DNA of 46,843 nucleotides from Psammoneis japonica (Eukaryota). The notes beneath the pieces were generated by a model. The model saw only the letters and a program-made list of their open reading frames with translations. It searched no databases and was not told where the DNA came from. The stretch covers positions 186,001-232,843 of the forward strand of contig QPGO01000131.1 in assembly GCA_008632985.1 (NCBI GenBank). The letters are read 5' to 3'. How positions within the stretch are numbered: the first letter of the stretch is position 1; each line of letters begins with the position of its first letter. Shown piece after piece: positions 1 through 38,379 of this stretch. The position numbers were made by a program, and so were the translations under genes.

Positions 1-253
1 ACGTCATTTCTTTGATTTTCCTTAATTGGTAAAGTTCGGGAGTCCAGAGAGTGTTGTCAAGGTCAAACACCACCAGGGCAGGTAAGGCTTCCAACCTTGG
101 AGAATCGTGGCGCAGCTGACAGCAGCGCGGCGAAAAACCACTGCCAAGTTTCAACACGAAAACAAGTAGCCCGGAAACAATGTATGTCGTCGCCCGGATG
201 GCTGATGCCATTGCCGTTTGCCTGCTAGTTCCGGGTATTGTCGATTTCAGCAT
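1..253 (-). CDS. Magnesium-dependent phosphatase 1 (MDP-1)-like HAD phosphatase, 5' part only (runs off the window edge); probable bipartite targeting presequence
   Basis: Own translation from ATG at 253: MLKSTIPGTSRQTAMASAIRATTYIVSGLLVFVLKLGSGFSPRCCQLRHDSPRLEALPALVVFDLDNTLWTPELYQLRKIKEMT. VVFDLDNTLW is the HAD motif I of the MDP-1 type. A hydrophobic stretch followed by G-F-S-P resembles a diatom signal peptide plus ASAFAP-like cleavage site. Absent from the ORF track because there is no stop in the window. Confidence 0.8.
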   Translation of the reverse strand, partial: MLKSTIPGTSRQTAMASAIRATTYIVSGLLVFVLKLGSGFSPRCCQLRHDSPRLEALPALVVFDLDNTLWTPELYQLRKIKEMT

Positions 254-299
254 CCGTTGACAAACAAGTAACTACTCATCAGTAAGGTACAAAGGCATC

Positions 300-2200
300 T
301 CAAGTTGGGAGCGTGATGCGAGTTGGGAGTGCGTCCGTCCGTCTGAACCGCGCAAACTGCCATCATGCCATCATTGCCGCAATCTCCACCTTCTCTTTTT
401 TTGTGGCTGATCTTTGACTGAAACCCAGCCCAGCCCAGCCAAGGAAAGATCAGGGACTTTGCTTGCGGGGGGATGGCTGGGCCTTGTCAGTGTGAAAAGC
501 TGTTGTGTGGTGTGTTTTCACAATGCGATCATCTGCTCTTTGCACCCGCTCAAAGTCTTCGCACTCTCTGGCTGACTGGCTCTCCAGTGATGCCTTCGCA
601 CCAGCGCCAGCCAGTTGGCAGAGGAGGTCCACAAAATGGTTTGAGAGCCACTCTTTGGCTGCCACCATCAGAAGCAAGCACTTCCAAGGGAGGCGACAAC
701 ACAACATGGCACTGCACTGCTCTGAAATCTGTGCCAACTTTCCAGAGCTTCATTGTTGTCACCCGCAACACTGTTGTTCCTTGAGGATTGAGGACAACCA
801 CTGCTTTTCTACCACAGTCTCTTGGCTGGCAGCTGCTGGCATGTGTGGGCTGCTGTTGTTTTTTTTTTTGCTGGCCTCCTCCTCTGTCACTGAGCTCTCT
901 CAATCTTTCTGGCTTGTCTTCACCCTGACGGTGAGCCCACCCATGCCATCCTCTGTCCTTGTCAAAGGATGTGTTGCATCACATCATTCTCACTTCCTCT
1001 TTGCTGTCTCTTTTCTCTCTTTTGAAGCCATGAAAGAAACAGCCAAAGCAGCTCAAGTCACACGAGCCACGTGCCTCATCTTCAAGAGACATCTCTTCCC
1101 TTTTGTCTTGCTCTCATCAAGACTTGTCAAGGAGGTCTGCATCAATGCAGCATGCACAGACTCCACTGACAAAGCAACAGCTGTCATTGTGGAAATGTTG
1201 CTCCATGTGACTGGGCAAATGTGCTGGTGCATGAAGGCACTGACATTTTGGGGTGCGATGAGAGCTCCTCATTTGTGGTGGGTGCTGCAAGCAGCAACTC
1301 CGGTCAGATGGTTGGCCATCCCTGTGGTGCTGGTGTGGCTGTGCTCAGGCACCAATCCCATGGTCAACAAAGCCTTGCACTTGCTCCCATGGTGTGACAA
1401 GAGTCACAAAGAACCAACTTGCCAAGGTGCTTTGCCAGCTGCCAGTGCCCAATGCTGTGGCAGATGCTGGGCAAAGCTCCAAAGCACACATGCAATGTCA
1501 GGGTGTTCCTGCCAATTGGAAGCTGTTGCACCACTCACTGGCAAGGGCACCCTGGCTGAAACTCCAGACTCCCCCAGTTGGGCAGTGTGGTCACTCAAAC
1601 AGCAAACAGGCAAACTCTGTGTGTTTCCACATTTCCAACCACAGCTGGAGCTGTTCTTAATTTGGGTGATGGCATTGCCCCCCCCTGTGTGCAGACCAAG
1701 ACTGCTGCTGGACATTGCAACAACAGTGCTCCACAGGCATCAAAGCACTGTCAGGCACAGGCAAAGTCAGTGATGGCATGTGCAAGAGGGGAGATTCCTT
1801 GCAGCAACGTTGCCCAGAACACCCAGCAATCACCCCTGAGGAACATGATTGAAGGGCTGCCAAAGACAAAGATGCAGCATCCTCAAATTCTTGTCAAGGG
1901 TCCAACAGCATGATGACAGTGATGATGATGATGATGCAAATGTGTTCTTGGAGTGAAAAACCAAGAGACCAGTTGTGGAGAGCACGCCCACAGAGCCACC
2001 AGCAATGATGCCACTGCTCAAGCTCTCATCTTCTTTCTTCTGAAAATGGTCTCAAGTTCATCTTCTTTGTTGGCTCATGCAGGGAGTTTCCTCATGCAGG
2101 GAGTTTCCATCTTTTTTCTTTGCACTTCTTTCATGGCTCCTGTCTTAAATCATGACAACTTGTGCACCTGGAAGTTTGGGGAAGAACATTTCTTCATCTG
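300..2200. other. TpA/CpG-depleted hypermutated domain 1
   Basis: After ggtac at ~288, TA is seen only at ~810, ~1657 and ~2146 until normal TA density returns at ~2205-2290. TG/CA are strongly enriched. No intact gene is recognisable. Confidence 0.85.
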
Positions 2201-2630
2201 GTCGTAAGTGCTTTCGATGGAGGTGCAGTGCCACATTTGACTCTCTTGTTCTGCGAAAAAGCCGCAAGGGAACAAGAGAGCTGCAAGTGTTTAGTCACGG
2301 ACTAAGCCCTAAACCATTCGTTGGAACTTCCTCAGAACCACCCTTTTTGTTTCTTCTAGCTAGAGCTGGCAGTGTAGAAAGGTACACATGCTTCAGAACT
2401 GTAGCAGCCATTGACTCTATTGAAGGAGAATTATAATCCTAGAGTGGATAAGGTGTCAATGTTGCTCCCTGCACATTCTACCTTAGGAGCAAGTGTAAAA
2501 CCTGTGCACGATTGCAATGCACTCGAGAGAAAAATCGACCTGACTTCCGGCCGGCTAATGAATCATTTGCTGAATGCGAGACAAGTGAATGGCTGTTTCT
2601 GCCCCCCTAAGTCTCAAGTTTGCGTCGTAT

Positions 2631-3512
2631 CTAATCAGTGCCATACCACGGTAAAGAATCAACCGGAAACAACAAGGGTCCATCGAACAATGATGGTGGA
2701 ATGAGTGAGTACCAAGCTTCCATGTCAGGCGCGGGGTGATAGCTGAATTCTGGGACGGAGCTTTGGTCCGGATCATCCGCTTCCAAGTCAAACTGTTCGG
2801 GAAAGAAGGGCAGAATTGACTCTGGGAAAAGCCTCATGAGGTATTGAGGAGAGGGATAGGCGATGGTACTATCAGGCCAACTGGAAATCCGTTGGATGCA
2901 AGCATAAACGATCCGCAAAAGACCCCGAAGTTTCTCCTTGTGCTCTTCTGTGCCATTTTCTTGGAATCGTTCAAAACTCCATCCGTACTCCCTTAAGTTA
3001 TCGATACCCGAGGCCGAAAAGTCAGAACTCCCGAACATAAGGTTCAGGGACAACATAATATCGTCGCTTTCGACATCGTCAACAAACAATAACATTTTGG
3101 AGGGGGGCGGTGCTTCCAGATCTTGAGTCTTTTGATTGTCTATTTCTTCCCATAAATCTTTCTGGAGATAGAACCGTGCAACGAGTCTGGAAGGATGGGA
3201 GTTCTGTGAAATGAAGAACGTAAATGGTTGCACCTGCGAAACCGTCACATCATCCAATTCAAAGTCCGGCCCCAATTCCGGGTGGGTCTTTCGTTTTTCA
3301 AAAGAAATCCTAGTGGGCAGTCGCTCTTCTTTGACAAGGAAAAAATGCCCATGGCGAAGGTCATTTACCGTTTGGCCTAGATCCTTGCACACCATGCCCA
3401 AGTTGGTAATGTCGTTGACACTCAGAAACTCGGCAAATAGCGGAAACACCGTTCCCAAAATGTGCAGATGCTCCTGTGCAATCTTCTGCTTCTTTTTGGC
3501 ACGGGTCAACAT
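2631..3512 (-). CDS. Hypothetical protein (~293 aa) with F-box-like N-terminal segment
   Basis: Long single ORF of normal composition (Tyr present). Likely start MLTRAKKKQK at 3512. ILGTVFPLFAEFLSVNDITNLGMVCKDL resembles an F-box motif (inference). Confidence 0.7.
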   Translation of the reverse strand: MLTRAKKKQKIAQEHLHILGTVFPLFAEFLSVNDITNLGMVCKDLGQTVNDLRHGHFFLVKEERLPTRISFEKRKTHPELGPDFELDDVTVSQVQPFTFFISQNSHPSRLVARFYLQKDLWEEIDNQKTQDLEAPPPSKMLLFVDDVESDDIMLSLNLMFGSSDFSASGIDNLREYGWSFERFQENGTEEHKEKLRGLLRIVYACIQRISSWPDSTIAYPSPQYLMRLFPESILPFFPEQFDLEADDPDQSSVPEFSYHPAPDMEAWYSLIPPSLFDGPLLFPVDSLPWYGTD

Positions 3513-4023
3513 CTTGGTCTTGTTGTTGTTGCTGTAGTATGAGCTGTAAGCTGTAACAGGCAAATAACGACGGCTGGTGGGAGTTAGAACCAACACTGCA
3601 GACAAAATATATTTGGCGGTGACGCTCCGAACGGCATGTACAAGTCTTTTCAACACCCGCCTTGTCAATCGAAATCGATCACAAGAGTCGTCAACAAGAG
3701 GGAGTCTAGACTATCTGTCAGAAATGAAACGCGACACGCGACGCAAAGCGCAGACGAGGTTGTGCATTTTGGCGCGCCCTTCACAAAGCTGCAAAAACAC
3801 ATCATTTTTTGACGATTTGCTCAAAAACACTACAAATCCCTCCGAATCATGATCCACTCAACAGCGCGCCAACCACCAACTCGTTTGTACTGATGAATGC
3901 TATTCCGTCTGAGTCAACCTCACACTTCACCACGTCGCTGTTAGTGAGGTTTAAAAATACTGTAAACGCCGACATTGCTACAACTGCTGATGATACAAGA
4001 ACGCTTGCAAGGAGAACGTCGAA

Positions 4024-4767
4024 ATGAATCTTACTGATGTGTTCCGCTTCGCTTTGATGAGCACTTTTGGCCTCGTTTTTTCGGAAGGCTTTTCGCTCCG
4101 CATGACAGCAGCTTCTACTTCTTCTACTCTTCCTCCCATCACAGTCTCGAAAGGGGATCATCCTCTGATCCGACGAGCTAATGAGTTTATTCACCGCGAG
4201 AGTGGCTTCTATTCTGACTACGATGCTGACTGCTTTGCCGAAGATTTTGTTTTTCGCGGTCCGTTCATCGGTCCTCTCAACAAACGAGATTATCTACAAA
4301 CGATGGATGCATTTGGCATCTACAAGGCCATTCCTGACATCAGTCCCAATGCATGGGGGTTTTCCATTGATCCCCGCGATCCAAACCGAGTATGGTTCAT
4401 GGTACGAAACACAGGCACGTTTAATGGCCAACCTTTGGCTCCCGATTCTCTGAATTTCAAACCCAATGGTGCAGTCCTTGACGGCTGTCCAGAAACCTTC
4501 AGTATTACCTTTGACGAAAATCAAAAGGTCAAGTATCTAACGGTAGGGTATGTGGCGGATCGTTTTGAAGGTAACACTGATGGTCAGGGGGCTGCCGTGG
4601 GTATCTTTAACGTCGTCGGGTTGCCGTTTCCTAAACCAGGACCACTGCTTCGATTTGCACAGTGGTTTGGAACTGAAGTTGTCAATTTGGGCCCCATGTC
4701 TTATTCACCTACGGATGTTCCAGCGTGGTGGAAAGATGAACGTAAAGCATCAGAAGGATACAGCTAG
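4024..4767 (+). CDS. NTF2/SnoaL-like fold protein, probably plastid-targeted
   Basis: 247-aa ORF. Signal-like N-terminus ending SEG|FS, then a Ser/Thr-rich transit-like peptide. The FAEDFVFRGPFIGPLNKRDYL...RVWFMVRNTGT...PETFSITFD pattern is typical of algal SnoaL-like proteins. Confidence 0.8.
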   Translation: MNLTDVFRFALMSTFGLVFSEGFSLRMTAASTSSTLPPITVSKGDHPLIRRANEFIHRESGFYSDYDADCFAEDFVFRGPFIGPLNKRDYLQTMDAFGIYKAIPDISPNAWGFSIDPRDPNRVWFMVRNTGTFNGQPLAPDSLNFKPNGAVLDGCPETFSITFDENQKVKYLTVGYVADRFEGNTDGQGAAVGIFNVVGLPFPKPGPLLRFAQWFGTEVVNLGPMSYSPTDVPAWWKDERKASEGYS

Positions 4768-5223
4768 TTTTTGTTTACGGTACACTACTATAGCATACCG
4801 GTAGCAAAACAGACAGAGACTTCTATCTTGCGCACTGCTTTTAACAACAAGAGAGTCCGTGCACTGTCCAAATGGTAGAATTTTTACAACATGACTTTAC
4901 ACACGAATCTCAATAACTTGCTAAGATGATTCTCTTCGTTTTCCTTAGCAGACAGAGACTGCATCGAAGCTCCTTCATAATCGTAGCGCATCACATAGTA
5001 GATAAGATGACGTCGACCTCATAGACCTGCACTTTGGGTGTGCTAGACGAGACTATGGAGAGCCCAGCATTTCTCGAAAATCGAGGTCCGAGTAGGCGTC
5101 ACTCTCCAACCACCGTAACAGGCAACTAGTGCATGTGGGATGCCAATGGATCACGTTTGGGTTGATGATGATAAGGAACCTGATGTAGAGAGAGGATGTG
5201 GACGTGAAGTACGATCGTACTTC

Positions 5224-5505
5224 CTACGTAATTTCAGTGCCGGCCCACACTCTTGGACATCCCCCCCAAATGTAGATGCGGATACGTGCGCTGTAGCCTA
5301 ATCGTGTCATGCTTTGTGCACGAAGTTGCGTGTTGATCGCATAGTAGTAGTCATGAGATGTAAGCATTCTGATGGCCCGTGATGACGTGCAACGAAGAGC
5401 TCCGACATTTGAGTGGTCTCCCGCCTCATCTTCCTCGCAGTAGGAAAGGATTAGAGCCCAAATGTCTAAGTCAAGAACTTCTAATGCGAAAGCGCCGGTA
5501 TTCAT
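5224..5505 (-). CDS. Short hypothetical ORF with F-box-like start (possible first exon or gene fragment)
   Basis: LEVLDLDIWALILSYC...LRCTS resembles an F-box. Composition is normal. The downstream exon structure could not be resolved. Confidence 0.35.
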   Translation of the reverse strand: MNTGAFALEVLDLDIWALILSYCEEDEAGDHSNVGALRCTSSRAIRMLTSHDYYYAINTQLRAQSMTRLGYSARIRIYIWGGCPRVWAGTEIT

Positions 5506-6099
5506 AGTTCTTCGTTATTAGTTTGTGAGAATTTGAACGCTGATGTAAAAGACAGGACTCGATGGAGTTTATGAAGCATTTCCTTCGTTATGTTGTGCAT
5601 CCTTCGGTCCGCGACGACTCGAGTGGAACAAGTTGGAACCCACGACTGAACGACTGAGTTGCGCGCTCTGGGACTGGGTTTCCGGCCGTGTGGGGCTGGG
5701 ATGACAGAGACCCAGTCGCGGGTCAGCTGTCGCACCCCACGGCTGCCACCGCTTCGAACAGATTGCAACTAACTAACTCCAGTGCCAAATGGTTGGCAAC
5801 AGACCACAGAAGGGTCCTTATTTGGCCGCAGGTTGCGTGCATTGAGTGGTCTCTGGTGCAGGTGGGCTTGAGACATCAGTCTGCAGTGTGGGTGGGCTCA
5901 AGCTGCTGATCAACAGCTCTTGTGTCATCTTCCCTGCTTTGCAGTGGCTGCTGCCACTTTGAACAGTGCAGCTGACTCCAGTGCCAAACAGCTGGTGGCA
6001 GAGGTCCACCTCTGCAGAGCTCAAGCTCTGGACCACTCACCAGAAGCCAGCCAGTTGTTGCCAGCTCCTGGGCCACTTTTTGGGTGGGAGACAGAAGGT

Positions 6100-6990
6100 G
6101 GGCCAATGAGATGTGGGCGGGAGTGCTGGCACACAACAAGGTGAACAATGTCAGTGTTGACCTGAGTGCATGGAAGGCCATGGCACTGCTTGCTGGAAGA
6201 AGGGAGTGAGTGGGAACATTTTTTGGGAGAAATCCAGCTGAGGATGGTTGTGGCCAGGTGGAGCGCACACGTGATGTCAGATGGTTTGACAGGCTTGAAG
6301 GCATTGCCTTGTTCATGGGAGGCAAGAGGCATGGTCAGGTGAGCACCATGCTGGTGCAGGATGAGCATGACATGAACTTTTGCAAGGGCCAAGTGGGGTT
6401 GTGGGTCACCACCACTCCAAGACAAGCCAGCGACTTTGCCTTGCAAGCTGTTTTCTGTGTGGCAAACTCCAGTGTGGCAAAGGTGGTGGCTGCAATTCTG
6501 CATTGGCTGTCATTTGCAAGTTTGGATGGACAGGGCAGATCAAAAGCTGCAGAGAGGGTGGTCTTGGATGGTGCAGCCACATGTTTGCTGGGCTGCAGCA
6601 AGTCGGAGAATGCCAACATGATCACATCAGTGATGATGCATGCATGGTGGCAACAGCACTGGCCAGCACAGCAGCAGCCATGGTGTGTCAGAGGAGCATG
6701 GGGAGCAGGTGTGAGTTTGACCTGGTTTGACAGAAGATCTTGTCAGGAGTGGAGTGGCATGCTGGCTGGCAGCAGAGGCAAAAGTTTGTGTTGTCCTGGA
6801 TGGCTTTGCGGGGGTCTGGGGACCCTGCTGCTGTGAATGCCTGGTCAATGCTGTGCAAGGCATCCTCCAGAGTGAAAGATCTGACTTGGTGACCATTGGG
6901 GGCAAGTGCTCCCTGTTGGCAGTGCTGGGCAAAGACTTGGAGGATGGGAGCAGGTTTGGCAAACTCTTGCATGGTGGGATCCAAGGAGGA
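6100..6990 (-). mobile_element. Decayed tyrosine-recombinase ORF of a DIRS/Ngaro-type retroelement
   Basis: Frameshifted pieces: PILQVFAQHCQQGALAPNGHQVRSFTLEDALHSIDQAF...SPDPR; IMLAFSDLLQPSKH (LLRPxEY box); ATTFATLEFATQK; MPLASH...PVKPSDIT...GFLPKNVPTHSL...AMA...QVNTDIVHLV. These follow the order of the YR domain of stramenopile DIRS-like elements as I recall it. Confidence 0.65.
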
Positions 6991-9900
6991 GGCCTTTCAG
7001 AGCTGGATCATGGTGCTGGCTCTTGAAGGCACAGTGCCAGCCTCTTGGTCTCTTGCTGAGCAGTGAAGCGATCATGGCAAAATTTGTTGAGGTGACATTC
7101 AACACAAAAAGATTCATTTTAATGTGCTGGAAATGCATCACAACATCAAGGACACAATTGATGAAGGACCAACTGTTGGAACATCCAGGACATGAGAAAC
7201 ACAAAGAACTCAGATGTGTTGATGAAAAGATGATGTGGCTCCTGACATGGCTGGATCATTCAGTTGCTCTTCATGAGCAAGGCTTTGCTGTCATCAATCT
7301 CTCACTTTTCAGTTTCATCTTGCTTTTCAGAGCAAATCATTTGGTTTGCATGATTTGTCCATCAGTGTCACTGGGCACCTGTCACATCACAAGTTTGAAG
7401 TTGTGTTGACAACTTGTTGGCAACCCACAGCCACAGCAAGCAACCAAGGCAAGTGTGCCAAGTGGCAAAGGAAGCCCAGCAGGACTCCCTTTTGGTGACA
7501 TTGATGGGCCAGTTCAACATCATTCATTCCACAGAGTTGCTGGCACTGTGTTCAGTGCTTGCAGACACTGACCTTCGTGCAGCTTGCCAGTGCTGGAACA
7601 CTGTGCCAGTTTCTGTGGGCCTGGGTTTCCACAGGACTGGGATCACAGAAACATGGTGCTGACAAACAGGCCTCTGGTTGTGGGCCAGCTGTCATGTCAC
7701 AAAAACATCCACCCACCGTTTGGCTCATGTTTTGCCCAACAAACAGCTTGCAATTTCAGATCTGCACATCACAGGCATCATCATGGATGCCACAACAAAA
7801 ACACAAGACATTGGTGCATGTGGTCTGTTTCTGATCTGTCCCAGATCTTTGTTTCTCCACGCTGTGCAGCCTCTGTTCCTTGGCATTCTGAGCTGGCTTT
7901 CACACTGACGGACAATGGCATGGGGTGTGTTCCACAACCCCCTCCTGCTCATCATCAGATCTTGTCCAAAATTTTTTGTGCTCAACAGTCAAAACACTTC
8001 CAAGCCCATGCAAGCACAAGTTCTGGACAAAGCTTGTGTGAGCAGCAACAGCCCCAAGTGACCCTGGTGCTTGCTCATGAACAAACAGCATCAGAGATGA
8101 GCACAAGCTCCATGCTGGCAACAGTGGTTGACTCACTCAAGAAACTGTTGTGCAGCAGCACTCCTGAAAAAAGGGCACAGAGGGCAAGGGAGGTCAGGAG
8201 CTTGCATCAAAAGGTGGCACATGCTGAGCTTGTTCTTGCAGATGTGGGTCACATTTCACAACCACAGAAATGATCAGTTGATGGCTTGTTTTAGAGATGG
8301 AGCCAGGGGTGGGCTCTTTTGTGCAGCTCACACAACATGACAAAGCAGCTTCTAGCTGGAGAGTTGACAATCCTTTGTTGTTCTGACTGGCCAGCTCTCC
8401 AAGGCAAGGATGCACCACAGGTGCCCATTGCTCAAGCTGTCTGTCATGGGGCTGGAGGGCATCATGTCATGATGCTTGGGTTGGGTGCTTGTGATGTCCA
8501 AATGCAGAGCCATGCTTGAGCTGCTTGCCAGAGCTTTTCTTCTGGCAGTGCACAGCCTGACATGCACGCTTTTGCCAACTGTGGGTGCAAAAGACAGAGT
8601 GATGTGAAGCAAAGCAGTGCCATCTCACAAGAGCACACATTGCAACAGTTCAGCATGCACTGTTCATCACAAAATGCAGCACGCTGCTGCCCAAAAACTT
8701 TTCACTTGTGTCTCTGATCTCTGGCATGTGAGGAACACAAAACAAACAAGAGTTGGTGGGAGCAAGCACCCTCCACTGCACTCACCTGGATCATCCAAAG
8801 CTTTGCCATGGTTGCCATGTTGCAAGTGAAGCAAAAAAACTTTTGGCAGAAAATCACGAGCTGTTTGGCCAAACTCAAGCTGAGTGAGAGTGGCAACTGA
8901 CTTCCCTCAAACCACAGAGCAAGACTGACCCAGCCTTTTGTCAGATGTTTTTGGATGGATTGGAGATGCACTCCAGCTCCAGGTGGGACCTCATGCCACT
9001 GGACTGTGCAACGTTCTTTTTGTCATCATGCACCACATGTCACACACGTGCATTTTTGCATGACTTTGGTGGCATTTTGTGCCACTCTGCAGCACAGTTG
9101 TTGGGCTGTCCATTCATCAACTTTCAGTGCATTTTGTGCACAAAGCCATTTTTAAATGTCTTCTGAATGGTGCAGTGCTGGCAGATTTTCAAAAATTGTG
9201 AGTGAAGCAGCCACTCCAGCCCCGGGCAGGACTCTGTGTGACACTGGGCCTGCAGAATTCTGCACATGGTGAGCTCTGCAACAAGAGCATTGGATGATTG
9301 ACAACTGACACAGTGGTTGTTGCAAACACAAAAAGAGGCAATTTTGCAAACATGTGAACTTCTTTGTGCTTGCAGTGCATCTTCTTTCTTGTTTTTGCCC
9401 AGATGTTTTCTCCAGACATTGAAGAACATGCCCAGGCAGTTTTTGTTTCTTTTTTGCTCTGTGATGGATGGCATGGTTGCCGCAACAAGAAGCCTTTGGC
9501 TTTGCAAAGTGGAAAGATGCACACAGAAATGTGTGTGTAAGAGCACATGGTGCATGACTGAAAACTCTCATGTTGCAATTCAGCAGTGCAAGGAACGGCC
9601 CACAGGGCTGGGCTGGCAGAACATGTCAAGTGTGAAGAGGCTTGCAACTGCACCACAAACTTGGCCATTCACTTGGATGTTGAAGACAAATGTTTTAATT
9701 GCCCAGCACAGGGACTGCAGAGTGCAGAGCTTGAGTGCAGAATTTCAAATTCTGCAAGCCCGTGTTGCACAGCCAGAGTCCCGCCTGGGGCTTGAGCATG
9801 TCTGGAGCCACTCTGGCTGGCCTCCTGATTAATTCATCTGGAAAACATTGTGGCTCTAGAATTCATCTGTGCTGAACAAGAACCCTGGGTTCTCAACAAG

Positions 9901-10467
9901 TGCTTGTCAATTGTGAACAAAGCAAATTTGATAATTGCTTTTACACTCCAAGTGGGAAAACATGCTCAATCTTCAGGTCTCATTGTTCATTCAATCTTGA
10001 CAAGATTGCAACCACAATGATTTTGACAGGATTTGGTTTGTGTCCAAACATGCCCAAGTGGGAAATGACAATCAATGAAACTTGTGACTTGCAGTTGTTT
10101 GTTCTTGACAAGGGTGCAATTGCAGCTGCTTTTTGACATTGCTCATTTCTGACAATGACAACATTCATTCTTCTCATTGGGATGCTCATGCGCGCTGGCT
10201 GTGTGCTGCTTGTGATGTGATTTGTGATGGCTGTGTTTTGTGTTTTGTCATTTCTGCTGTGAGTGGGCTTTTGCTTCCTGTTTCCTGCTCTTCCCTCTTT
10301 GGTTTTGTCCTGTCTGCTGCTGGTGCTCCTGTGCTGCAGTCATTCTCTGTCTTCACATGATGGCGTCATGTTTGCTGATTGTGTGATCCCTTGCAACTGC
10401 TCTCACTCACTGCAACCATGTCATTTGTTCTGTGTTGGATTGCAACCTTGTCTCTTTTGCTGATCAT

Positions 10468-10740
10468 GCCAGTTTGCCAAAGTGTTGCCTGCAAAGAAGA
10501 AAAAAGGGCTTGCAACAGATCAGAGCACTGAGTGTGTCTTGTTTCAAATGGGCTTGGCTTGGTGCAAACAGCATTTCTGCTCACTTTTGTGTGCGACCTT
10601 GTCTCTTTTGTTTTTTTTGCCAGCTTGCCAATGTGTCACCTGCAAAGAAGAGAAAAGAGTGTGCAACAGATGAGAGCATTGCTTGTGTTTTGTTTTGAAT
10701 GTGCTTGGTGCAAACACTTTTTCTGCTCACATTTGTGTGG
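10468..10740 (+). repeat. Two-copy direct repeat, period ~150 bp
   Basis: gccagtttgccaaagtgttgcctgcaaagaaga...gcaacagatcagagcactg...ttggtgcaaacagcatttctgctcac recurs as gccagcttgccaatgtgtcacctgcaaagaaga...gcaacagatgagagcattg...ttggtgcaaacactttttctgctcac. Confidence 0.75.
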
Positions 10741-11589
10741 CCCCTGCAGGGCCGTCTTCCCTTCTGGCTCCCCTCGCATGTCAACATGCCCTCCCCCCCT
10801 CCCCTCTGCTCTTCTGTTGCCTTCTCTTGCTGTTGTCATTGTTGTGACATTGCATGAGCCCTGTGTTTTGTGTTTTGTGTCTTGTGAGGCAATGATGATT
10901 TGTGTTTTTGTGGCAATGTCAAGCCTGTCTGCCTGATGATTCCTGTTGGCATCGCTTTTTAAGTGACATTTTTTAAAATTCCACACTCACACCCAGTTTT
11001 GAAGGTTTGAATGATTTGAAATGAATTGAATGAATCATCCAGTTGTTGAGGTTTTGCATGTGTGTCTTCAGCCAGTCAATTTCTCATGTTAACGTGTTCT
11101 TGTTAAGATGGAAATTTTCACAGTCTTGCTGCCACACACCATCTTTTTTCAATGCTCTGGGACTTCGATCTCCACTGATGCCCTCACAACCACATTTTCT
11201 TTTTGGTGTGTTGCAACAATGCTGCCAAAAACATGTGAACTGCTCCCATGGAGGTGGTGGTGGCCAGCCTTGTGCTGTCAACCATTCCAATGCCGGTGGT
11301 GCTCTTGGCCATGGTGAGATGCAGGTGGGGCTGGCAGATCTCAAGCTGAGCCTGAGCCTCAAGACTGAAGCTGGAGGAGCCCTCAGAGAAACCACCAAGG
11401 CTCTGCTGCCAGAGCTGCTGCAGCACCGGATGACAACCCAGCAACTGCTGCCACTGCTGCTGCCTCCATCAACAATGAAGCCACTGTCCACCATGCCAAT
11501 GCAGCCAACACCCCCCCCCCCCCCCCCCGCCAGTGCCACTCCACCCAAAGATCTTCAATTTCTCATGTGTTGGCACAAAATTCGTCCTG

Positions 11590-12570
11590 TGATTGTGGTT
11601 GTGTCCCCTGGCACCCAATGGAGTCTCCCGTGACCATCCCAAGACAACTGAGCACTTGCGCTGTCACACAGGTGGCTCCCTGGTCTCTGCAGGGGTGTGG
11701 TGGCTGGGCCAAAGCCAGTCATGTGAGAAAGAAAAGGGGCTGCATTGACACAAGACAAGGCCTTTGCTCCCCAAAACCAAGATTGTTGTTGGCTCCCCAG
11801 GGGCACAATGGAGTTGCCCAAGGCCATCCAAAGACAACTGGGCACTTGCATTGTCACACAGAAAGCTCCCTTGTCTCTGCAGCTGGGGTGGCTGTGCCAA
11901 AGCCTGTCACATGTCAGAAAGAAAAGGGGCTGCATTCTTGACACAAAACAAGGCTTTTGATTCCCAACCATGGTTGTTGCCAGCTCCCCTTGGACACAGT
12001 GGAGTCACCCAAGGCTGTCTAAAAACAACTGGGCACTTGCGCTGGTGTCACACAGAAAGCTCCCTTGTCTCTGCAGGTGGGGTGGCTGGACCAAAGCAAG
12101 CCAGTCACATCAGAAAGAAAAGGGGTTGCATTGGCTCAAAACAAGGCTTTTCCTTCCCAACCATTGTTGTTGTTGTTGTTGCCTCCTCTGGGACCCAAAA
12201 TGGAGTTTCTTGTGCCCATCCCAAGACATGTGAGTGCTTGCACTGTCACACAGCCAGATGGCTCCCTTGTCTTTGCAGGTTGGTTGGCTGGGCTAAACCC
12301 AGCCATGTCACAGAGAGACAAGGTGCTGCTGCATTGACACAAGACAAGGCCTTTGCTTCCCAACCATTGTTGTTGTTGTGTCCTCTGGGACCCAATGCTG
12401 GAGTCATCCAAGGCCATCTCAAGGCAATGGAGCACTTGCACTGTCACACAGATGGCTCCCTTGTCTCTGCAGGTTGGCTGGCTGGGCCAAAGCAAGTCAT
12501 GTCAGGAGGCAGAAAGAAAAGGGGCTGCATTGACACAAGATAATGCTTTTGCTTCCCAACCATGTGGTTG
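11590..12570 (+). repeat. Tandem repeat, ~5 diverged copies of a ~195-bp unit
   Basis: The anchor agaaagaaaagggg(c/t)tgcatt occurs at ~11726, ~11916, ~12112 and ~12511, with a variant at ~12312. Each unit also shares gcacttgc..tgtcacacag...gctccc(t/g)tgtctctgcag. Confidence 0.85.
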
Positions 12571-12629
12571 TTGGCATGTCCTTGGCAAATGCCACTGGAG
12601 TCCTCCAACACCATCCAAAGAAAGCTGCA

Positions 12630-12940
12630 CACCTCCTTTGCCACATCTGTGGGCCTGATGCTTCCACACCTTGTGCAGATGGGCTCTTCCTTTTTGTGGA
12701 ACCATGCAAGGGACTGCTGCTGCCCAAGACAAGGCTTGCAGTGACCAATTTTTGCAGGTTGCATGTCTCCAAGGCTCTGCCAGAGTCTGCCAATGCTGTC
12801 CCAAGATGACTGCTGCATGCCTCCTTTGCAACATCTGCGGGCCTCATGCTTCCACACCTTGTGCAGCCAGTGGGGGTCTTCTTGTTTGTGGAGGAATCGT
12901 GCAAAAGGGGCTGGTGCTGCCCAAGACAAGGCTTGCAGCT
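12630..12940 (+). repeat. Two-copy direct repeat (~190-bp period) adjoining the 195-bp array
   Basis: ctcctttgc(c/a)acatctg(t/c)gggcct(g/c)atgcttccacaccttgtgcag...gctgcccaagacaaggcttgcag at ~12633 and ~12822. Confidence 0.8.
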
Positions 12941-14503
12941 TCCCAACTCAAGAGTGCAAAGATGCCACAATTGGACCAACCCACTCAACAACTGCAGACT
13001 GAGTGCATTTGGGGTGCATGTCATGCAGGCAGCAACTCAAACCAATGTGTGTTGATGGTGATGATGATCATCTGGCTTGGCATTTGGCAAACATTTGCTG
13101 GGACATGGGGACACCACCACATGCTCCATTTTAGTTTCTCAAGTTGTCGCCAATGTTGCTCATTGCAGGCAGGGCTGGTCAGCTGCAGTGTGTCATCTCC
13201 TGCTTCACACATGATGCAAGGGCAGGAGAAACATGATCTGCTGTGGACATGGCAACAATTCAATGCATCATCTCTGCCACTGGCTTGTGCTTGGTTCTCA
13301 CTTGTGCACTCAGCAGAGCCTCAAGAAATCAAGCGTGCTGCTGTCATTTGGCATCCTTGGCATCTGCGTCATCCACTTTCCCCACCCATCTGAACAATTT
13401 CAGCCTTGACCTGAAGATCAAAACATGAAAGACAAGTTCCAAGCCCTCACACTGGATTTGATTTGCAAACAAACAGAACATTCTTGGGAGCCTTGGCATC
13501 TGTGCAGCGAAGTGAAGCCAAGTGCAGCTGAGAGAACGAGAAGCAAAAACACACAAGCCAAGCATGTGCAAAAGTGCAAACTCACTGGCAGATGACAAGT
13601 CCCCCAGCATTTCCAAAACAATGGCGCGCAATTTGTTTTCTTGTTTGCAAATCTCTTCTCCTTGTTGTCTGGCCTTTTCATGAATTTTGTCTTCACCCAC
13701 TTGATTTGCTTGAGTGGCTGCAGTGCTTTGCAGGAGATGCCATCCTGCACCATCTTCCATGACATTCAAGCAAGTCTTCCATTCCAAGAGGATCATCAAA
13801 TGCATCATGAATCACCAAGGCATGAACAATGCGCACATCCACAAATGGCCGTCCATCGGCATTGCAGCACACTGCCACACAGACGTTGCTTGGCTGGACC
13901 CCGCCAAACATTCTGGAAATCCTGCCAAAACTGCAGGCCTCCTGGCTTGCTTTCCCAGTCCCACCATGAGTGACCTTCTGATCTGCCAATTGCTGGCTGT
14001 GATTCACTCGACGATTCTTTTGCCTCGTTTTGCACACTGTGTTTGATGTCTCTTTTCTTCACGCTGTCTCCCTCTTTTTGACAGTCGTGGCTCTCACCAC
14101 TGGTCAGCCTTTTGCACTAGAAGATCTTCAACCCTCTTTTACCAGGCTTTTAATGTTCCCACTGTGTGGGGGTGTTAGTCGAGAGAGATCACTCCCGCGA
14201 TGCACTGGAGTTTCCATCAGACCGTGCAGAAAGACAGATTTACCTGAAAGATCGTGACTCACGACACCCCCGTGACTGAACCATCTTCCCGCTTTTTGGC
14301 CGGAAGTTTGGCGGCAAAAACTGTTCGCCATCTCTCTGCAGGGGTGCACAACTTCCCGAAATCCCGAGACGAAAATTCACTTTTCTCACTTCGTCGATTC
14401 ATTCGTCGCCAACGAGAACCATCAACTAGCTAGAGCACGGACAGGAGGTCGCTGAATCTTTTCAACTGCGGGAATCATTGATTTGTTAGACCAAGAGAAA
14501 AGA

Positions 14504-16502
14504 ATGCCAAACATGCAGATTGGCGTAGAAAGCTCGAATTACTATGATGTCGGATCAGCGGAACTTGTGAAGGAGACTCCCTTGACAATTCAGAAGCTCG
14601 AAAAGGTACGGAAGTCGTGTTAATAACGGGCAAGTTCTAACATTTGTTCAAGCATGGCTCAGATGAAGCTTGCATGTGCAGTGTCGTCACTTTTTCTCAG
14701 TTACCCTCGCACCAGAAATCACTTTCGTCTCACTCGTCATGTTCTTTCTCGTTTCAGAGACGGAATTTAACCCCCGATTCCAAGCGCTTGGTGATTGTTC
14801 TGGTTGGCTTGCCGGGCAGAGGCAAGTCTTTTGTGGCACGCAAGTTGTCCTCGTTCTTCACCTGGCGTGGTACAGAAGCGAAAATATTCAATGTTGGTCG
14901 CTATCGCCGCCAGGCGGTTTCCGAATTGGCTTCTGGAGATGCTGGAGAGGGAGAAAGGACTAAGAGAGGATCGTGTGATGCCTCATTCTTTGACTCCAAC
15001 AACAAGGAAGCGGCGGCAATAAGGCAGGCATCTGCAGAGCTAGCCATGAAGGACATGCTCGAGTGGTTGGATCGGGATCTCGAAGGAGAGAGCGGTTCAT
15101 CATGGTCTTCGTCGACTTCTAGTACCATTCTACCTACAAAGGACCGAATTGCAATCTTCGATGCTACCAACTCAACCAACGAAAGGCGTAACTGGGTGCT
15201 CGAGCAGTGCACTTGTCCCATAAGACGCAAGGATAAGCCTACTGGTGTTGTTTTTGTGGAATCGATTTGCGACGACCAGGACCTCTTGGAAGAGAACTTT
15301 AGATTCAAGGTCCTTAACTCTCCCGATTTCCAAGGTTTGAGTACAGAAGAAGCCATTGCGGACCTCAGGATGCGTGTGGAAAAATACGAAGAAGCGTACG
15401 AGACAATCACAGATGATAATCTTTCATACGTCAAAATCTTCAACCTTTCCAGCAAGCTCCTCGTGAATCAAATGTACGGCCGAATGGCAAAAACCATGGT
15501 GCCTGCGTTGATCGCCTGGAACATTGGAACAAGACCCGTCTTCCTTTGTAGAGCAGGAAGTTGTCCGGATGGCATGGATGACGAGGATTATCACACCTCA
15601 ATGAAAGAAATTGGTATGGAGTCACCTCGCGCGAAACGAAAGCTTGTTGCCGGAAAAAGGCTGGGCCCCAAAGGGATCCAGTTCAGAGACAATCTCTCCG
15701 ATTTTATCCTTTCTGAGGGTTTGAGTTTTGTGAAAGAAAGGAACAAGGTCTCGTCACTCTCATCACCCAAGACTTCGGGAACATCAATCTCCGGAATTGC
15801 CGGCAAGATTGCAGGAGACACTGGTACTGACGGTGAAGAATTGCCCTTTCCCCTGGTTGTCATGTCTAGTACCATGCCGCGTGCAGTGCAAACGGTGAAT
15901 TGGGACGGTCTTCCATTTCCCGTGGAACAACTGTCGGCACTCAACCCTCTGGATAAAGGTGACTTCGCTGGAATGGAGCTCGAAGAAATTCGAAAGGAGA
16001 ACCCGGCATGGTACGCGCAGCTTGAGCAGGATCCATTTCACACAAGGTGAGTGTGATGTCGTTCAGATCACAATCCTTAGTAAGCGGCCTCTTGCATATC
16101 TCACAGTTTTCACACTGCTGGTAATCGCGCAGATTCTCGGGTGGTGAAAGCTATAATGACTTGATCAGGCGTTTAGAACCGGTCATCATTGACATTGAGC
16201 AACAGGTTGCACCTGTGGTAGTTGTAAGCCATGTGAGCATCATCCAGGTGCTAATTGCATACTTTCGGCATACCCCAGTTGAGAAGTGTACGTCTATCGA
16301 AGTTCCCATGCACACGGTGATGAAGTTCACGCCTGCCCGCGGAGGAGGCTGGAGTGAGCAGTCGTTTCCTCTTGAAGAGAGAAACGACGCTGGAGCTTTC
16401 TCTCCTTTGTCACCCAGCAATGATTCTTGTGTGAGCGTTCTTAGCGAACTATCCGAATGTCGGAATCCCCCAATTTGGGGCGACCCAGTTCCATTAGAGT
16501 AG
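14504..16502 (+). CDS. PFKFB: 6-phosphofructo-2-kinase/fructose-2,6-bisphosphatase family protein (3 exons)
   Basis: Exons 14504-14605, 14758-16046 and 16133-16502 with GT-AG introns in compatible phase. Kinase motifs: P-loop VLVGLPGRGKS, IFNVGRYRR, FDATNST, FVESICDD. Phosphoglycerate-mutase-like C-terminal domain: RFSGGESYNDLIRRLEPVI, VVSH. Confidence 0.92.
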
Positions 16503-16846
16503 CTGCGTTGAATGTCAGGCATCCACTCTGATCCCTTTGTAGGGCCTACTGCAGTTTTGTTTACGCCAATTAATGATATTTTCATATTATCGTGTTGTGC
16601 CGCTCTTGGTGACACATCGTAGTAGACTAATACTTTCTCACATCAACGACTAGGAGAGTAGCACTACCGTTGCTGGCTCCAGCTAGTAGTAGTTCTGTCC
16701 ATTGACGGGGCCACAAACATTACGTGATGGCGCTAGGTCCCATTTATTGCTTTCATCCCTACGATACAGTATTAGCTCACAAATCACGTCGTCCCACTGC
16801 CCAAGGGACCTGTTCCATCCGAAAACAAGAATCATCTCTCGTTCGA

Positions 16847-19583
16847 TCATGACAAGGAAGGGACGATGTTCCTAGTAGAATAGCGAAGGTCTTGCAGTTT
16901 GCGAACTGATGTCTGGAGTATACCCGACGCCTCTACTCCGTCGTCAAAAAGAATATCGTACTGTATGCCTTCAGTAGTATTTATGATCTCGCCAACGAAC
17001 CAGTTGCCACGCTCTTTGAAATTTCCATACACTTTGTCGCCGACCTTCAGCTGTTCGCCATTCCCTCGTTTTTCCTTGTCATAGTGATCGACGGAAGGCA
17101 CTACTACCCCTTTCTCAACCTGACTATCATCAACATACCGTATATCGTATGACACACCTACGGCGACGCCCTTGACAGCGCCCCTGTACCAATGTTCATG
17201 ATGGTATACCTCTACTCGATCTCCCGGTTGATGCATTGCGCCTCGCACTGTAGGTGGTTTAATCATGCTGTCCTTCCACTGTTCTGGAAAAATGTCATCG
17301 CTAATCTCAATGTAGTGACGGAAAGCATCAGGTAAATGCAGATCGCTACGATAAGGCTTTGTCACGTACTTGATTGAATTTCTCGGCAGGTTAGTCACAA
17401 AACGAGGAACTCCGGCTTCTTCCCAAGCGGTTGTATCGTGAGAAGACGACTGAAAGATTCTAACGGTGTAGGTATCGTCATCACTGGAATGTTTTGAGAC
17501 AACAGAGCATGGCCAAAAATGTCCATGCGCCCCCGGATCCTTCACAGAGTCGCTCCCATCAACGCTGTATCGAGCTAAAATCTCTTCGTCTGACAAAGCT
17601 TTCCATTCTGTGTCGGCGACAACCTCATCACTACTTTCCCCGTACCAGCACACTGTCGTAACGTCGTTTCCATAATAAGGTCGATCGTCACGAAGATCAT
17701 GAGTAAGGTTGGGTGGAACTCGGTTGGCATTCAATTCGGTTACCGAAACATGATGTTCTAGGCTACCGGTAGGCGACTTCCAGTTCCTCACATGACTCTC
17801 CCAAGCTTCTTCCCAACCGGCTCCGTAATCCATGAAAATCTTGCTCGAGCATTGGAAAGAATGGACAAGAGCAGTGTGAGTGCTGCGTCTTACTGATTCG
17901 AAAGCCTGAAATTGCTTGTGCACGCACCTCTTCTCCAGCTTTGATGTCACGTGTCGCCACAATCTCTAAAGTTAGCAGACGCTCTTGCTTTGTCTGTGTC
18001 GCCGGTATCCAGTGCACACATTAGCAAGAAAGAGCAAGAGACAACGATACAGAAGCATCTGAAATAAAATGAGCGAAAGATCAATGCTGGCACACACCTC
18101 TTTGATTTCTTGTAAGGAACGGTTCAACCAGAGTGTAGTAGCCTTGTCCCATTCCGTAGCCCAGCGAACCATAGCGTTTGGTCCATCCTTACCGCACTGT
18201 TGCTTTCGTACGCTGCAGTGGTTTATCAGCACCGCATTTGTTACAGGGCATAGTAACAGACTGCTCTCAGCATGAGAAAAACAGTAATTCAACAAGAGCT
18301 GTTTCCCACGTGCCTCTAAATGATCCGTAACAACTTCATATTCCTTTGTCTCTTGATTCTGCGAGGCGTAGGTGGGGAAAGTGGAGAACCTGTCAATATT
18401 TGTAATGTGCAACAACGGAGTCGGCACAATGATTTGTCCTTCCTTTAAATCTCGCTGTGCCATGGCGCCCCGACCAGCTTGAGGAATCGTACTGCGCATT
18501 GGTACAATATTGTCCAGACACACTCCGTTCTCCTTGATCCATTCGACGCCTCTGTTCTTTACCGAAAGCTCTTTTGCCAAGCGGAAGGCGAGTTCGCGGG
18601 GCTCCATTGAATAATTGGCGGCCTTGAGCACGTGTTGCAGATCGTCCATACTTTTAGGCAAAACGGATGATGCCCTCGAACCGCCATACACAGACGCAGC
18701 TTCATGCATTGTGGAAAGGACTGCAATAGCGAAAAGGCTAACGTGAGCGACTACCACAGCTCAAATTGAGAAAAAATCATGCATTACTCCTCCCGATTAA
18801 AGACAAACACGGACACGTCTTACCCAATTTTCCCGTCAGAGTATCATTGAGGAATCTATCCCACCCATTGTCGTCGCCGAGCTCTTGCTTCATTTTCTGA
18901 ACAAAGTTTGATAAGAACTGGCCTCCCAATTCAAAATCCTTAGAGCGCGGAACATGTCCATACTCTTTGCGATGATCAAGCCACGATTCCGAGTAGTCTA
19001 GAAAGATTTCATCGCCAGCTTCGATGTTTTCCATTGCAAAAAAGTCCTTTCCCAGATAGTATGAAAAGGCCCCTGCACCCGGATCTACATACCTATCCAC
19101 CATTGAATCATCCAAAATGGGGTTGGGCTGACGGAAGCTTAAATTCTTCAAGTAAGTGTGATAGTTTGGCAAGGCTCCAAACATGATTTGGAAATCAACC
19201 GGCTCGAGAGATTCAAAACGCATATCATCGCTCATGCCGCCGTTTCTTCCCCACCACACGTTATTCAATATCCTCAGGTGGTCACCTTGTAGATGGTCGG
19301 GATCTACAACTGGTATGTTTGGCCCGTCGTTTCTTAAAATAAATTCGTCCTGTTTGAATGCCTTGACAGTGAATATGCCGTAGCCCGCAAATGGGATGGA
19401 CGACGGTGCCATGTAAAGGGTGCAAGTGTTTTCATTTTCATCATTCTCTTGTTCCAATCCGATCGCACCACAAGTTTCTGTGCCCGAGCTGTCGCAGTTT
19501 TCACCGTCTGCTTGTTGTGCTGCAGCAATCGAGTTAGTAGCCACAACACCGGCCCATGCAAGAAGAAGTAGCCAGATGTTCAT
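16847..19583 (-). CDS. Signal-peptide-bearing protein with two SET domains and C-terminal tandem Tudor/SH3-like repeats (4 exons)
   Basis: Exons 19583-18824, 18720-18098, 17993-17928 and 17839-16847 (GT-AG, phases consistent). Signal MNIWLLLLAWAGVVATNSIAAA. SET1: LYMAPSSIPFAGYGIF...ALPNYH...IEAGDEIFLDY. SET2: STIPQAGRGAMA...LINHCS...RDIKAGEEIFMDYG. Tudor-like: PGDRVEVYHHEHWYRG...YDIRY and VGDKVYGNFKERGNWFVGEI...YDILFDDG. Confidence 0.85.
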
Positions 19584-20002
19584 TGCGCAGTCTCTTCTTT
19601 CTCCTCTACTCTCTTCTCTCTTCGTCTTCGTGCAACGGGCAATGGGCAACGCTAACGGGTAACGTGTAACGTGCAAGGTGCGGTTGTCAGTGCGTCTATC
19701 AGGCGGAGGGTCAAATCATTATATCATTCCTAAAAAATGAATATTTTGAATACTCCATTTGATATTCCAAAATGAAATTTCAAATTTAGGCCGATCTTTT
19801 GGCCAAATTGGAAATACAGCAAATTTTGAAGCCTGTACGTTATCCGTTTTTACAATAAATCGTCAAAAACGGTGATAAAGGAGAAAGGGGAAGCGAGAAA
19901 CGAAACGAGCGACGCGAAAAAAAAGTACACTCCGCTCGCTCCAGACTCCTGTAGAGTGACAGCTGCAACAACAAAACGGATCCTATACTAAGACTTGCGA
20001 CA

Positions 20003-25137: not shown

Positions 25138-25459
25138 GTTGCTTCTTTGTTTTGGGCAGAAGCGTCGGCTGCAAAAAGTTCTCATCGATCGATGAAAGAT
25201 CGGTGTCACGTACAAAATGTACTGAATTCTACACAGAAGATCTTTCCAAAGAATCTTCAACAGTGAAGTTCCGAATTCCTTATCTAATCTTTTCGTCTGT
25301 CAGTCGACGCAAAAATAAGGGCAAACAAAAATCTCGTGTTGAACTTTCAAAGACATCCAACAAAGACGATCTTGCATCTTGCCGTTGCTGTCCACCTTAC
25401 AAGCTCTCTCGCTGCACGCTAATAGCCATCCTTTGTGTGTCGTGGACTAGGACGTTGTA

Positions 25460-38333: not shown

Positions 38334-38379
38334 TTCTGCTGCTTGTGGTTTAAGAGTGATCATCGCAAGTGCAAGAATG

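Follow-up and report, generated by a model that had tools for sequence, protein, structure and literature searches.

In mutation-accumulation lines of the chlorarachniophyte Bigelowiella natans, two integrated viral regions mutate approximately 1000-fold faster, and this rate is active in only some of the lines (Mettrop et al., bioRxiv 10.64898/2026.01.13.699255). The main text of that preprint reports that 230 of 231 mutations in the viral inserts were A>G or T>C, all of them on TpA. It also describes 124 clusters in the B. natans genome that are depleted in TpA and enriched in CpA and TpG, proposes an ADAT2-like deaminase and cites Trypanosoma ADAT2 as acting on DNA. Fungal repeat-induced point mutation (RIP), as generally described, consists of C>T changes that mostly convert CpA to TpA, thereby creating TpA and lowering the GC content. 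Flank preferences have been reported for TadA-derived base editors, with ABE3.1 preferring YAC and ABE8e-YA preferring YAY over YAR (Y, pyrimidine; R, purine; PMC12528748), and for amphioxus BjADAT2, which deaminates both A and C in DNA with a preference for TCG, a CpG context, at cytosine and, in E. coli, for GAA at adenine (PMC10354150). Here, we analysed a single window of 46.8 kb from the diatom Psammoneis japonica (46,843 nucleotides; contig QPGO01000131.1, forward strand, positions 186,001 to 232,843), in which TpA has been nearly erased from discrete domains by transitions that follow a flank rule. Based on a by-eye tally in one of these domains, an original prediction had held that the remaining TpA sites are mostly YTAR and that a strand-symmetric process targeting TAY/RTA had left them.

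Counts of TpA, CpG and TpG+CpA per 500 bp and per 100 bp revealed two sharp-edged compositional states along the window. Unmutated islands, located at 1-290, 2146-5820, 14118-27522 and 41743-42161, contained 8-36 TpA, 6-40 CpG (mostly 17-40) and 62-83 TpG+CpA per 500 bp; the corresponding values for the mutated domains were 0-6 TpA (mostly 0-4) and 91-131 TpG+CpA. The domain edges were placed by eye from these dinucleotide counts, using the 100-bp profile and a listing of sites. TpA density flipped within tens of bases at 288/810, 2146, 5819, 14118, 27522, 41766 and 42132, and the TpA hypermutation was confined to discrete regions beside normal DNA. Mutated domain A spans 300-2140; TpA ends at 288, and CpG stays dense to approximately 378 and tapers until 605. 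Domain B (5830-14110; 8,281 bp), to which the original prediction referred, holds 18 TpA, 57 CpG and 1,938 TpG+CpA. Domain C1 (27530-31370) has 13 TpA left but 145 CpG (approximately 70% of the island density), and gene relics can still be recognised in it; we take it to be a mutated domain that is either young or was treated differently. In domain C2 (31371-41740), both TpA and CpG are depleted, and domain D (42165-46843) continues past the end of the window. Together, the mutated domains comprise 29,012 bp.

From islands to mutated DNA, TpA dropped from approximately 41 to 2.5 per kb (72 sites in 29,012 bp) and CpG from approximately 54 to 13 per kb. The loss of TA+CG computed from the dinucleotide counts, approximately 84 per kb, equalled the gain of TG+CA, also approximately 84 per kb, and the GC content was nearly constant (0.481 in mutated DNA vs 0.471 in islands). 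Because GC was unchanged and the loss of TA and CG matched the gain of TG and CA, the TpA and CpG steps must have been turned into TG/CA by transitions, and the original prediction was right to set general GC-biased conversion aside. All composition-based estimates take island composition as a proxy for the unmutated state. Across the whole window, the purine-pyrimidine steps shifted from islands to mutated DNA as well (per kb: AT 65 to 52, AC 59 to 48, GC 55 to 75, GT 62 to 65), as predicted for A>G before a pyrimidine, although a different ancestral composition is also conceivable.

To compare the flanks of standing TpA sites, we assigned each to YTAR, to the half-sites (RTAR and YTAY) or to RTAY; this class is robust to a heavy transition load because transitions cannot alter it. 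A listing of every TpA in domain B reproduced the tally of 18 sites, with 14 in the YTAR class, 4 half-sites and no RTAY. The YTAR sites are TTAA at 7120, 9153, 9696, 9830, 10960, 10974, 11090 and 11104, TTAG at 8292 and 13132, CTAG at 8353 and 9857, and CTAA at 12020 and 12294; among the positions given originally, only 10975 had to be corrected, to 10974. The half-sites are GTAA at 9538, ATAA at 9932 and 12541, and TTAC at 9942. Island TpAs were distributed as 145 YTAR, 373 half-sites and 208 RTAY (n = 726; the island total is 733 or 726 depending on the treatment of region edges), from which 3.6/9.2/5.2 would be expected among 18 sites (chi-square p = 4.9e-9). The difference persisted when the 18 sites were compared with the flank classes of the TG/CA sites of domain B itself, the sites from which new TpA arises (p = 7.9e-8), and a first-order Markov model within mutated DNA gave expected shares of 0.34/0.49/0.18 for YTAR, half-sites and RTAY.

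The ranking was replicated outside domain B. All mutated domains together contained 45 YTAR, 27 half-sites and no RTAY (n = 72); without domain B, the counts were 31/23/0 (n = 54), and after additional removal of a 9-bp satellite they were 22/23/0 (n = 45). For this independent subset of 45 sites, the probability of finding no RTAY was 2.5e-7 against islands and 5.1e-6 against the source contexts. The 13 TpAs of domain C1 fell into classes of 6/7/0, compared with approximately 31/81/45 expected from island densities scaled to its length; these are probably true survivors, and their ranking is the same as elsewhere. Within the window, the flanking tetramers of TpA in mutated domains are therefore not distributed like those in islands; an island-like distribution would have spoken against a flank preference.

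An unmutated copy of a repeat element (41743-42161, plus strand; 419 bp, 21 TpA and approximately 33 CpG) that is nested in mutated DNA served as a reference for the ancestral state. Three mutated copies of this element were located in domain B, at 8967-9210 on the plus strand (alignment score of 217 vs a maximum of 43 for shuffled queries) and, by alignment, at 9195-9625 in inverted orientation on the minus strand and at 9591-9803 on the plus strand, the latter comprising the 3′ part. In addition, an unmutated 65-nt piece just outside domain B (5739-5803, plus strand) is homologous to mutated 5944-6002. To find further pairs, we compared each 300-nt island chunk with the whole of the mutated DNA by transition-tolerant alignment; in the window, this yielded none beyond the ~415-bp element, the 65-nt piece and one borderline hit (score of 53). 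A BLAST search with purine/pyrimidine-recoded sequences returned the same families only, its short hits being uncalibrated noise. On both sides, the 41743-42161 block stops where homology to the mutated copies (8967-9803) stops; it resembles either a recently inserted short non-coding element or a copy that has been protected.

None of the 34 ungapped ancestral TpAs was kept in the mutated copies. Single transitions accounted for 28 of them, with 16 now TG and 12 now CA, and even the 8 ancestral YTAR sites had all lost TpA in these old copies. Among 48 ancestral CpGs, 1 was kept, 20 had become CA, 18 TG and 2 TA. The changes were not restricted to one type, given that 47 of 48 CpGs had changed and that 125 transitions and 50 transversions were found at 600 aligned positions outside TA and CG; the old copies gave other processes time to act. 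Ancestral CA was replaced by TG at 11 of 59 sites and ancestral TG by CA at 8 of 48 sites, and in two paralog families both CA and TG occurred among 4-5 copies at 34 of 93 pyrimidine-purine sites. Because such swaps are far more frequent than independent single transitions would allow, TA and CG serve as short-lived intermediates. The two strands were converted independently of each other: TG/CA states had an autocorrelation of 0.01-0.03 in mutated domains vs 0.016-0.022 in islands, and no strand-coordinated patches of TG or CA above the island level were found in the mutated domains.

The paralog alignments also gave the direction of the event, which the original prediction had left to such a comparison. 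Ancestral RTAR became RCAR six times and RTGR once, and ancestral YTAY became YTGY seven times and YCAY three times, which corresponds to A>G on the strand that reads TAY at 13 of 17 scorable half-sites (21 listed, some of them seen in two copies). The products pointed in the same direction: RCAR and YTGY made up 60.7% of TG/CA sites with half-site flanks in the old domains, 57.2% in C1 and 51.5% in islands, an excess over islands with Fisher p-values of 1.9e-8 (old domains) and 0.054 (C1). From C1, the share of TpA half-sites resolved in the favoured way is estimated at 0.74-0.84. Counted per strand, A>G occurred at 19 of 34 adenines in TAY and 11 of 36 in TAR, and these rates show that a 5′ T is strongly preferred at the target adenine. 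Adenines without a 5′ T changed to G in 48 of 149 cases before a pyrimidine and in 18 of 152 before a purine (p = 2.3e-5; approximately threefold); split by the other 5′ bases, the rates were 9-22 of 40-59 for NAY and 5-7 of 44-55 for NAR. A 3′ pyrimidine preference was thus found in half-sites, in NAY vs NAR and in standing TpA.

As a control, we examined non-CpG G>A changes, which showed no effect of a 3′ pyrimidine (20/130 vs 21/112, p = 0.5); because the effect is missing there, it can be assigned to A>G specifically, and an alignment artefact can be dismissed. The standing CpGs provided a further line of evidence. With 58 YCGR, 217 half-sites and 93 RCGY vs 91/195.5/81.5 expected (p = 3e-4), they are rich in RCGY and poor in YCGR, as was predicted because CA>CG regeneration follows the same rule of A>G before a pyrimidine. 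The churn of CA and TG among copies (14 of 30 at R_YR_Y vs 3 of 14 at Y_YR_R) had the expected direction, with numbers that are too small. The preference is quantitative, being approximately two- to fourfold per strand for a 3′ pyrimidine over a 3′ purine, and the A>G contexts rank as T-A-Y > T-A-R >> N-A-Y > N-A-R; the complete lack of RTAY reflects saturation, not an absolute rule. The half-site ratio, the product excess and the per-strand rates together bear out the strand-symmetric TAY/RTA process that had been proposed.

CpG loss behaved differently. CpG had been converted to TpG or CpA at 38 of 48 ancestral sites, and CpG gradients were graded at domain edges. The edges at 289-605 and 13832-14110 lacked TpA but were still dense in CpG, and the TpA-erased zone approaches the genes more closely than the CpG-poor zone, by a few hundred bases. 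Because C1 and these edges are depleted of TpA yet rich in CpG, TpA loss is faster than CpG loss and separable from it. In the direct pairs, no flank bias of CpG conversion was found: per-strand G>A amounted to 26 of 54 at CGY vs 17 of 39 at CGR, and the CpG half-sites split 7 vs 10, opposite to the direction of a YCG preference. A composition-based estimate of the CpG flank effect (a = 0.78) disagrees with the direct pairs.

The description of today's TpAs as survivors required revision. At 12020, 12294 and 12541, sister copies of a ~195-bp tandem repeat carry CpA, and the TTAA at 9153 is aligned with TCGA in the unmutated element, so that at least 4 of the 18 TpAs of domain B are secondary. 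Since, moreover, none of the 34 ancestral TpAs was kept, the term mostly does not hold for the old domains and probably does for C1. Today's TpAs in the old domains are mostly regenerated sites awaiting removal, their number being set by regeneration on one side and flank-dependent removal on the other.

The data show the depletion together with its mass balance, the polarity of the changes and a flank rule that is specific to A>G. These observations are best accounted for by two context-specific transition processes that have run near completion in at least four sharp-edged, repeat-rich domains of this diatom, with a deaminase of the TadA/ADAT kind as the probable agent; we assign this combined reading a probability of roughly 0.55. 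One process would convert TpA to TpG or CpA by A>G on either strand, and the other would convert CpG to TpG or CpA as in the classical decay of methylated CpG. Each TpA would be open to attack on both strands, with RTAY being lost first, half-sites next and YTAR last, and half-sites would resolve chiefly to YTGY and RCAR. The process is long-lasting: CA and TG go on interconverting via short-lived TA or CG, and the YTAR bias of standing TpA would reflect the slower removal of regenerated sites. The agent may be a DNA adenine deaminase that is guided to silent chromatin bearing repeats and defends the genome there. TadA/ADAT enzymes read U33-A34 in tRNA, a specificity that would account for the TpA requirement. 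Such an enzyme is the best mechanism that we can offer, if an unproven one; a scan of 14 open reading frames (ORFs) in the islands of the window returned no hit to a deaminase family.

Several other explanations were weighed against this reading. If TpA removal were blind to its flanks and new TpAs arose mainly from C>T at YCA (G>A at TGR), biased regeneration alone could produce an excess of YTAR, and new TpAs are indeed demonstrable at the four secondary positions named above as well as in the satellite, where TTTGG has become TTTAG or TTTAA. However, C>T at the C of CpA was unbiased (6/104 at YCA vs 15/216 at RCA, p = 0.81), and even zero gain at RCA predicts a ratio of YTAR to half-sites of approximately 32:27 compared with the 39:20 observed in the old domains. 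The 13:4 direction of half-sites and the per-strand rates at TAY and TAR concern loss and not gain, and the young domain C1 has the same ranking, which makes this account improbable. We consider an origin in thymine chemistry about equally improbable, in which a modified or oxidised T in 5′-RTA-3′ (e.g. of the 5-hydroxymethyluracil type) mispairs with G and yields T>C. At the level of sequence, T>C at RTA and A>G at TAY are indistinguishable, and both strands were hit equally and without coordinated patches, the autocorrelation being at island level. The documented precedents for the motif, however, are adenine deaminases, and nothing in our analysis points to a thymine modification in this organism. 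We know of no thymine-modifying enzyme that produces a TpA-specific T>C spectrum.

A slightly better, though still unlikely, candidate is fixation of A:T>G:C at TpA by error-prone repair synthesis of the DNA polymerase eta (Pol eta) type, with its WA hotspot (W, A or T), or by aberrant mismatch or glycosylase repair on methylated chromatin; Pol eta had already been named for comparison in the original prediction. Pol eta makes A>G errors at WA, with TA as the hottest site, and the CpG-depleted domains would fit methylated chromatin with busy T:G mismatch repair. Yet 28 of 34 ancestral TpAs were changed by a single transition, and Pol eta, besides causing numerous A>T and A>C changes, attacks AA to a similar extent. 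A 3′ pyrimidine effect is, to our knowledge, not a described feature of Pol eta, and TpA was also lost where CpG was retained, in C1 and at domain edges. Hyperediting of retroelements as double-stranded RNA by an ADAR-type enzyme, copied back by reverse transcription, is very unlikely. A 5′ U is favoured according to the discussion of the B. natans preprint (bioRxiv 10.64898/2026.01.13.699255), and repeats are affected here. However, whole sharp-edged domains were converted regardless of their content, be it satellites, tandem repeats, gene relics or single-copy DNA. Both strands were hit site by site, with no one-strand A>G clusters beyond the island level, and unmutated and mutated copies of one element exist in the same region. 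ADAR prefers a 3′ G, which is the opposite of TAY. Least probable of all is chance, a side-effect of composition or a sequencing or assembly artefact. The original sample consisted of 18 sites counted by eye, 8 of them TTAA and some in repeats, but the p-values for domain B (4.9e-9 to 7.9e-8) and the replication in 45 independent sites argue against chance. Against an artefact, the TA/CG-free sequence recurs in contigs of a public sequencing run (X1), where its depth equals that of the neighbouring island, with the caveat that X1 is possibly the sample of the assembly itself, and one element is present in both mutated and unmutated copies.

The comparison with run X1 was as follows. A contig of 4,344 nt crosses the edge between the island and domain B (3229-7562) with 9 differences, and contigs at 7545-9264 and 9239-9924 show 1 and 0 differences, respectively. 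The word depth was approximately 59-68 in the island and in the unique part of domain B alike. Given its possible identity with the assembly sample, the run rules out a local assembly artefact, while its support is not fully independent. Against the unique part of domain B, the X1 contigs showed 3 differences in approximately 4.1 kb, as expected if the TpA substrate is exhausted. Within domain A, an X1 contig at 1290-1617 had 12 differences, of which 4 are adjacent TG<>CA doublets (1328/9, 1350/1, 1361/2 and 1529/30); it could be an allele or a close paralog in which the same ancestral TA/CG sites were resolved the opposite way, suggesting recent activity.

Some points weigh against the deaminase reading. 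We infer the enzyme from the sequence pattern, and that pattern would read identically if T>C had struck RTA on the opposite strand instead of A>G at TAY. All direct comparisons of ancestral with mutated DNA come from one element family and the 65-nt piece, approximately 600 aligned nt, and the three mutated copies may share history, so that the 13:4 ratio does not represent 17 independent events. The composition-based estimates presume that the mutated DNA was formerly island-like. In a test of singletons inside mutated paralogs, the effect of a 3′ pyrimidine was weak (19/251 vs 20/455). The B. natans mutations reported in the main text of the preprint are on TpA only, whereas adenines outside TpA also changed here, although these changes span a much longer period and their polarity is uncertain. 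Amphioxus ADAT2 favours GAA, not TAY, for adenine (PMC10354150).

A broader scenario, which we put forward tentatively and regard as rather doubtful, is an ancient TpA-editing immunity throughout the Stramenopiles-Alveolata-Rhizaria (SAR) supergroup, in which a chromatin-targeted adenine deaminase of diatoms would perform a "reverse RIP", its relation to the B. natans system being one of either common descent or convergence. The T-A-pyrimidine fingerprint would then stem from a TadA/ADAT ancestor whose specificity for the anticodon loop was transferred to DNA, and CpG loss might also be driven by this enzyme or by a partner of it.

The mutated domains contain tandem arrays and the 415-bp dispersed element. 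A tandem repeat of approximately 190-197 bp occurs in domain B, with five good copies at 11587-12563 (plus strand). The summed X1 word depth over this repeat (11587-12940; 8672-13340) reached 2,298 vs approximately 60 elsewhere; this peak at 8.7-13.3 kb indicates a high-copy repeat and shows that the repeat family is very abundant in the genome. At 38426-40825 (plus strand), approximately 266 units of the 9-bp satellite CAAGTTTGG explain the strong G+T (GC and AT) skew at 38.4-40.8 kb. Its CA step reads CA in approximately 174 units, TG in approximately 57, CG in approximately 30 and TA in none, and the change of TTTGG to TTTAG or TTTAA, found 10 times, yields TpAs of the YTAR class. We had considered CAAGTTTGG as a mutation clock and rejected it, as the polarity of the CA, CG and TG variants cannot be fixed. 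Flanking the satellite, a repeat of approximately 285-300 bp is present in four copies, one of them inverted (37680-38340 and 42523-43110), that differ largely by CA/TG swaps.

Long ORFs were found in all six frames of the mutated DNA (up to 542 aa; e.g. 505-1773 and 39320-40948) without a family match; such spurious ORFs arise because TAA and TAG are absent. We scanned 149 stop-to-stop ORFs of at least 90 aa from mutated DNA against Pfam, and real hits were restricted to C1 (DSPc, 4.2e-16; DUF179, 3.2e-10). Hits to collagen were rejected because they represent the CAAGTTTGG satellite read in frame, and the remaining hits were at noise level. No viral or transposon families were hit among these 149 ORFs, the only matches being the host-like relics in C1. 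The DSPc hit is a relic of a dual-specificity phosphatase (28690-29022, minus strand) whose HCxxGxxRS catalytic motif is intact; AYLM of a homologue reads AHLM here, a change of a tyrosine codon from TAY to CAY. Two DUF179/AlgH-like gene relics in C1 are split across several frames. These relics indicate that ordinary genes beside repeats were swept in.

The islands encode eukaryotic genes with long exons, namely a 6-phosphofructo-2-kinase, a Tudor/Agenet protein, a SET-domain protein, a glutamate dehydrogenase and a triose-phosphate transporter. The closest relatives of the transporter are 66-83% identical and come from diatoms (MMETSP transcripts of Attheya, Eucampia, Chaetoceros and Thalassiosira; metagenome-assembled genomes of Bacillariaceae), and by these genes and their relatives, the window is diatom nuclear DNA. 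A search of a phage collection with 14000-27500 gave no match. The Tudor/Agenet and SET ORFs adjoin one another on the minus strand at 16847-19676, in the island between mutated domains; the position of chromatin reader and writer genes there is probably a coincidence. An inverted repeat at 27141-27251 (arms of 45 nt, 91% complementary, spacer of 21 nt) lies in normal DNA approximately 280 bp before the edge of C1. Contigs of another run, X2, skip intron-like pieces and are cDNA-like; within 1-20000 they were found on island parts only, and a part that X2 leaves uncovered is no evidence of silence.

In the literature searched, TpA-specific hypermutation of unwanted DNA is known only from the one 2026 chlorarachniophyte preprint, and we found no report of TpA-depleted domains in diatoms. 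New here is the same kind of process, in a saturated form, in a diatom, a member of a group that dominates ecologically and is open to genetic work. Ordinary genes beside repeats can be caught up in the process, and it bears an A>G-specific T-A-pyrimidine signature that matches the substrate logic of TadA-type deaminases and makes the identity of the enzyme a testable question. TpA-free, TG/CA-rich sequence with no RTAY can also serve annotation as a marker of silenced, decayed DNA, which is invisible to homology searches and in which gene callers would over-predict long spurious ORFs. In 80 metagenome loci near relatives of the transporter (340,988 bp, 1,245 counting windows), one counting window had at most 4 TpA and was simply GC-rich; as short gene-proximal contigs, these loci are no evidence that other diatoms lack TpA-free domains.

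Among the features of known systems, those of ADAR hyperediting, namely a 3′ G preference, one-strand clusters and confinement to retro-copies, were not found here. The TCG preference described for amphioxus ADAT2 differs from the CpG conversion observed here, which shows no flank bias in the direct pairs and is separable from TpA loss, although one ADAT2-like enzyme could in principle erode both TpA and CpG. Decay of methylated CpG shows the same conversion of CpG to TpG or CpA (38/48) and the same graded CpG edges, the methylation being presumed here, but it covers the CpG half only, because TpA loss reaches DNA that keeps its CpG (C1, 289-605 and 13832-14110). Like RIP, the process degrades repeats by dinucleotide-specific transitions, spills into genes and leaves compositional domains beside gene islands; in contrast to RIP, TpA is destroyed and GC unchanged, with neither a TpA excess nor a drop in GC. 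Moreover, the coexistence of unmutated and mutated copies of an element argues against pure homology triggering, although the unmutated copy may be young. The TadA-derived editors, as described for ABE3.1 and ABE8e-YA, likewise make A>G changes on DNA and favour 5′ and 3′ pyrimidines, ranking their contexts as TAY over TAR does here; they differ in being engineered bacterial enzymes tethered to Cas9 that accept a 5′ C besides T, and a natural chromatin-targeted homologue in this organism would be hypothetical.

The closest likeness is to B. natans, in which TpA is also converted to TpG and CpA on both strands of discrete regions within a normal background, with long-term depletion of TpA and gain of CpA+TpG, in clusters that the preprint describes as rich in unannotated and transposon- or virus-like genes. 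B. natans is a chlorarachniophyte and thus belongs to a supergroup different from that of the diatom studied here. The words "trinucleotide", "flanking", "context", "CpG" and "diatom" do not occur in the main text of the preprint, whose supplementary site table may hold flank data. Compared with that system, the depletion here is near saturation, at approximately 2.5 TpA per kb, and CpG is co-depleted. The targets here are repeats, satellites and host-like gene relics, with no viral genes recognised, and the preference for a 3′ pyrimidine is resolved.

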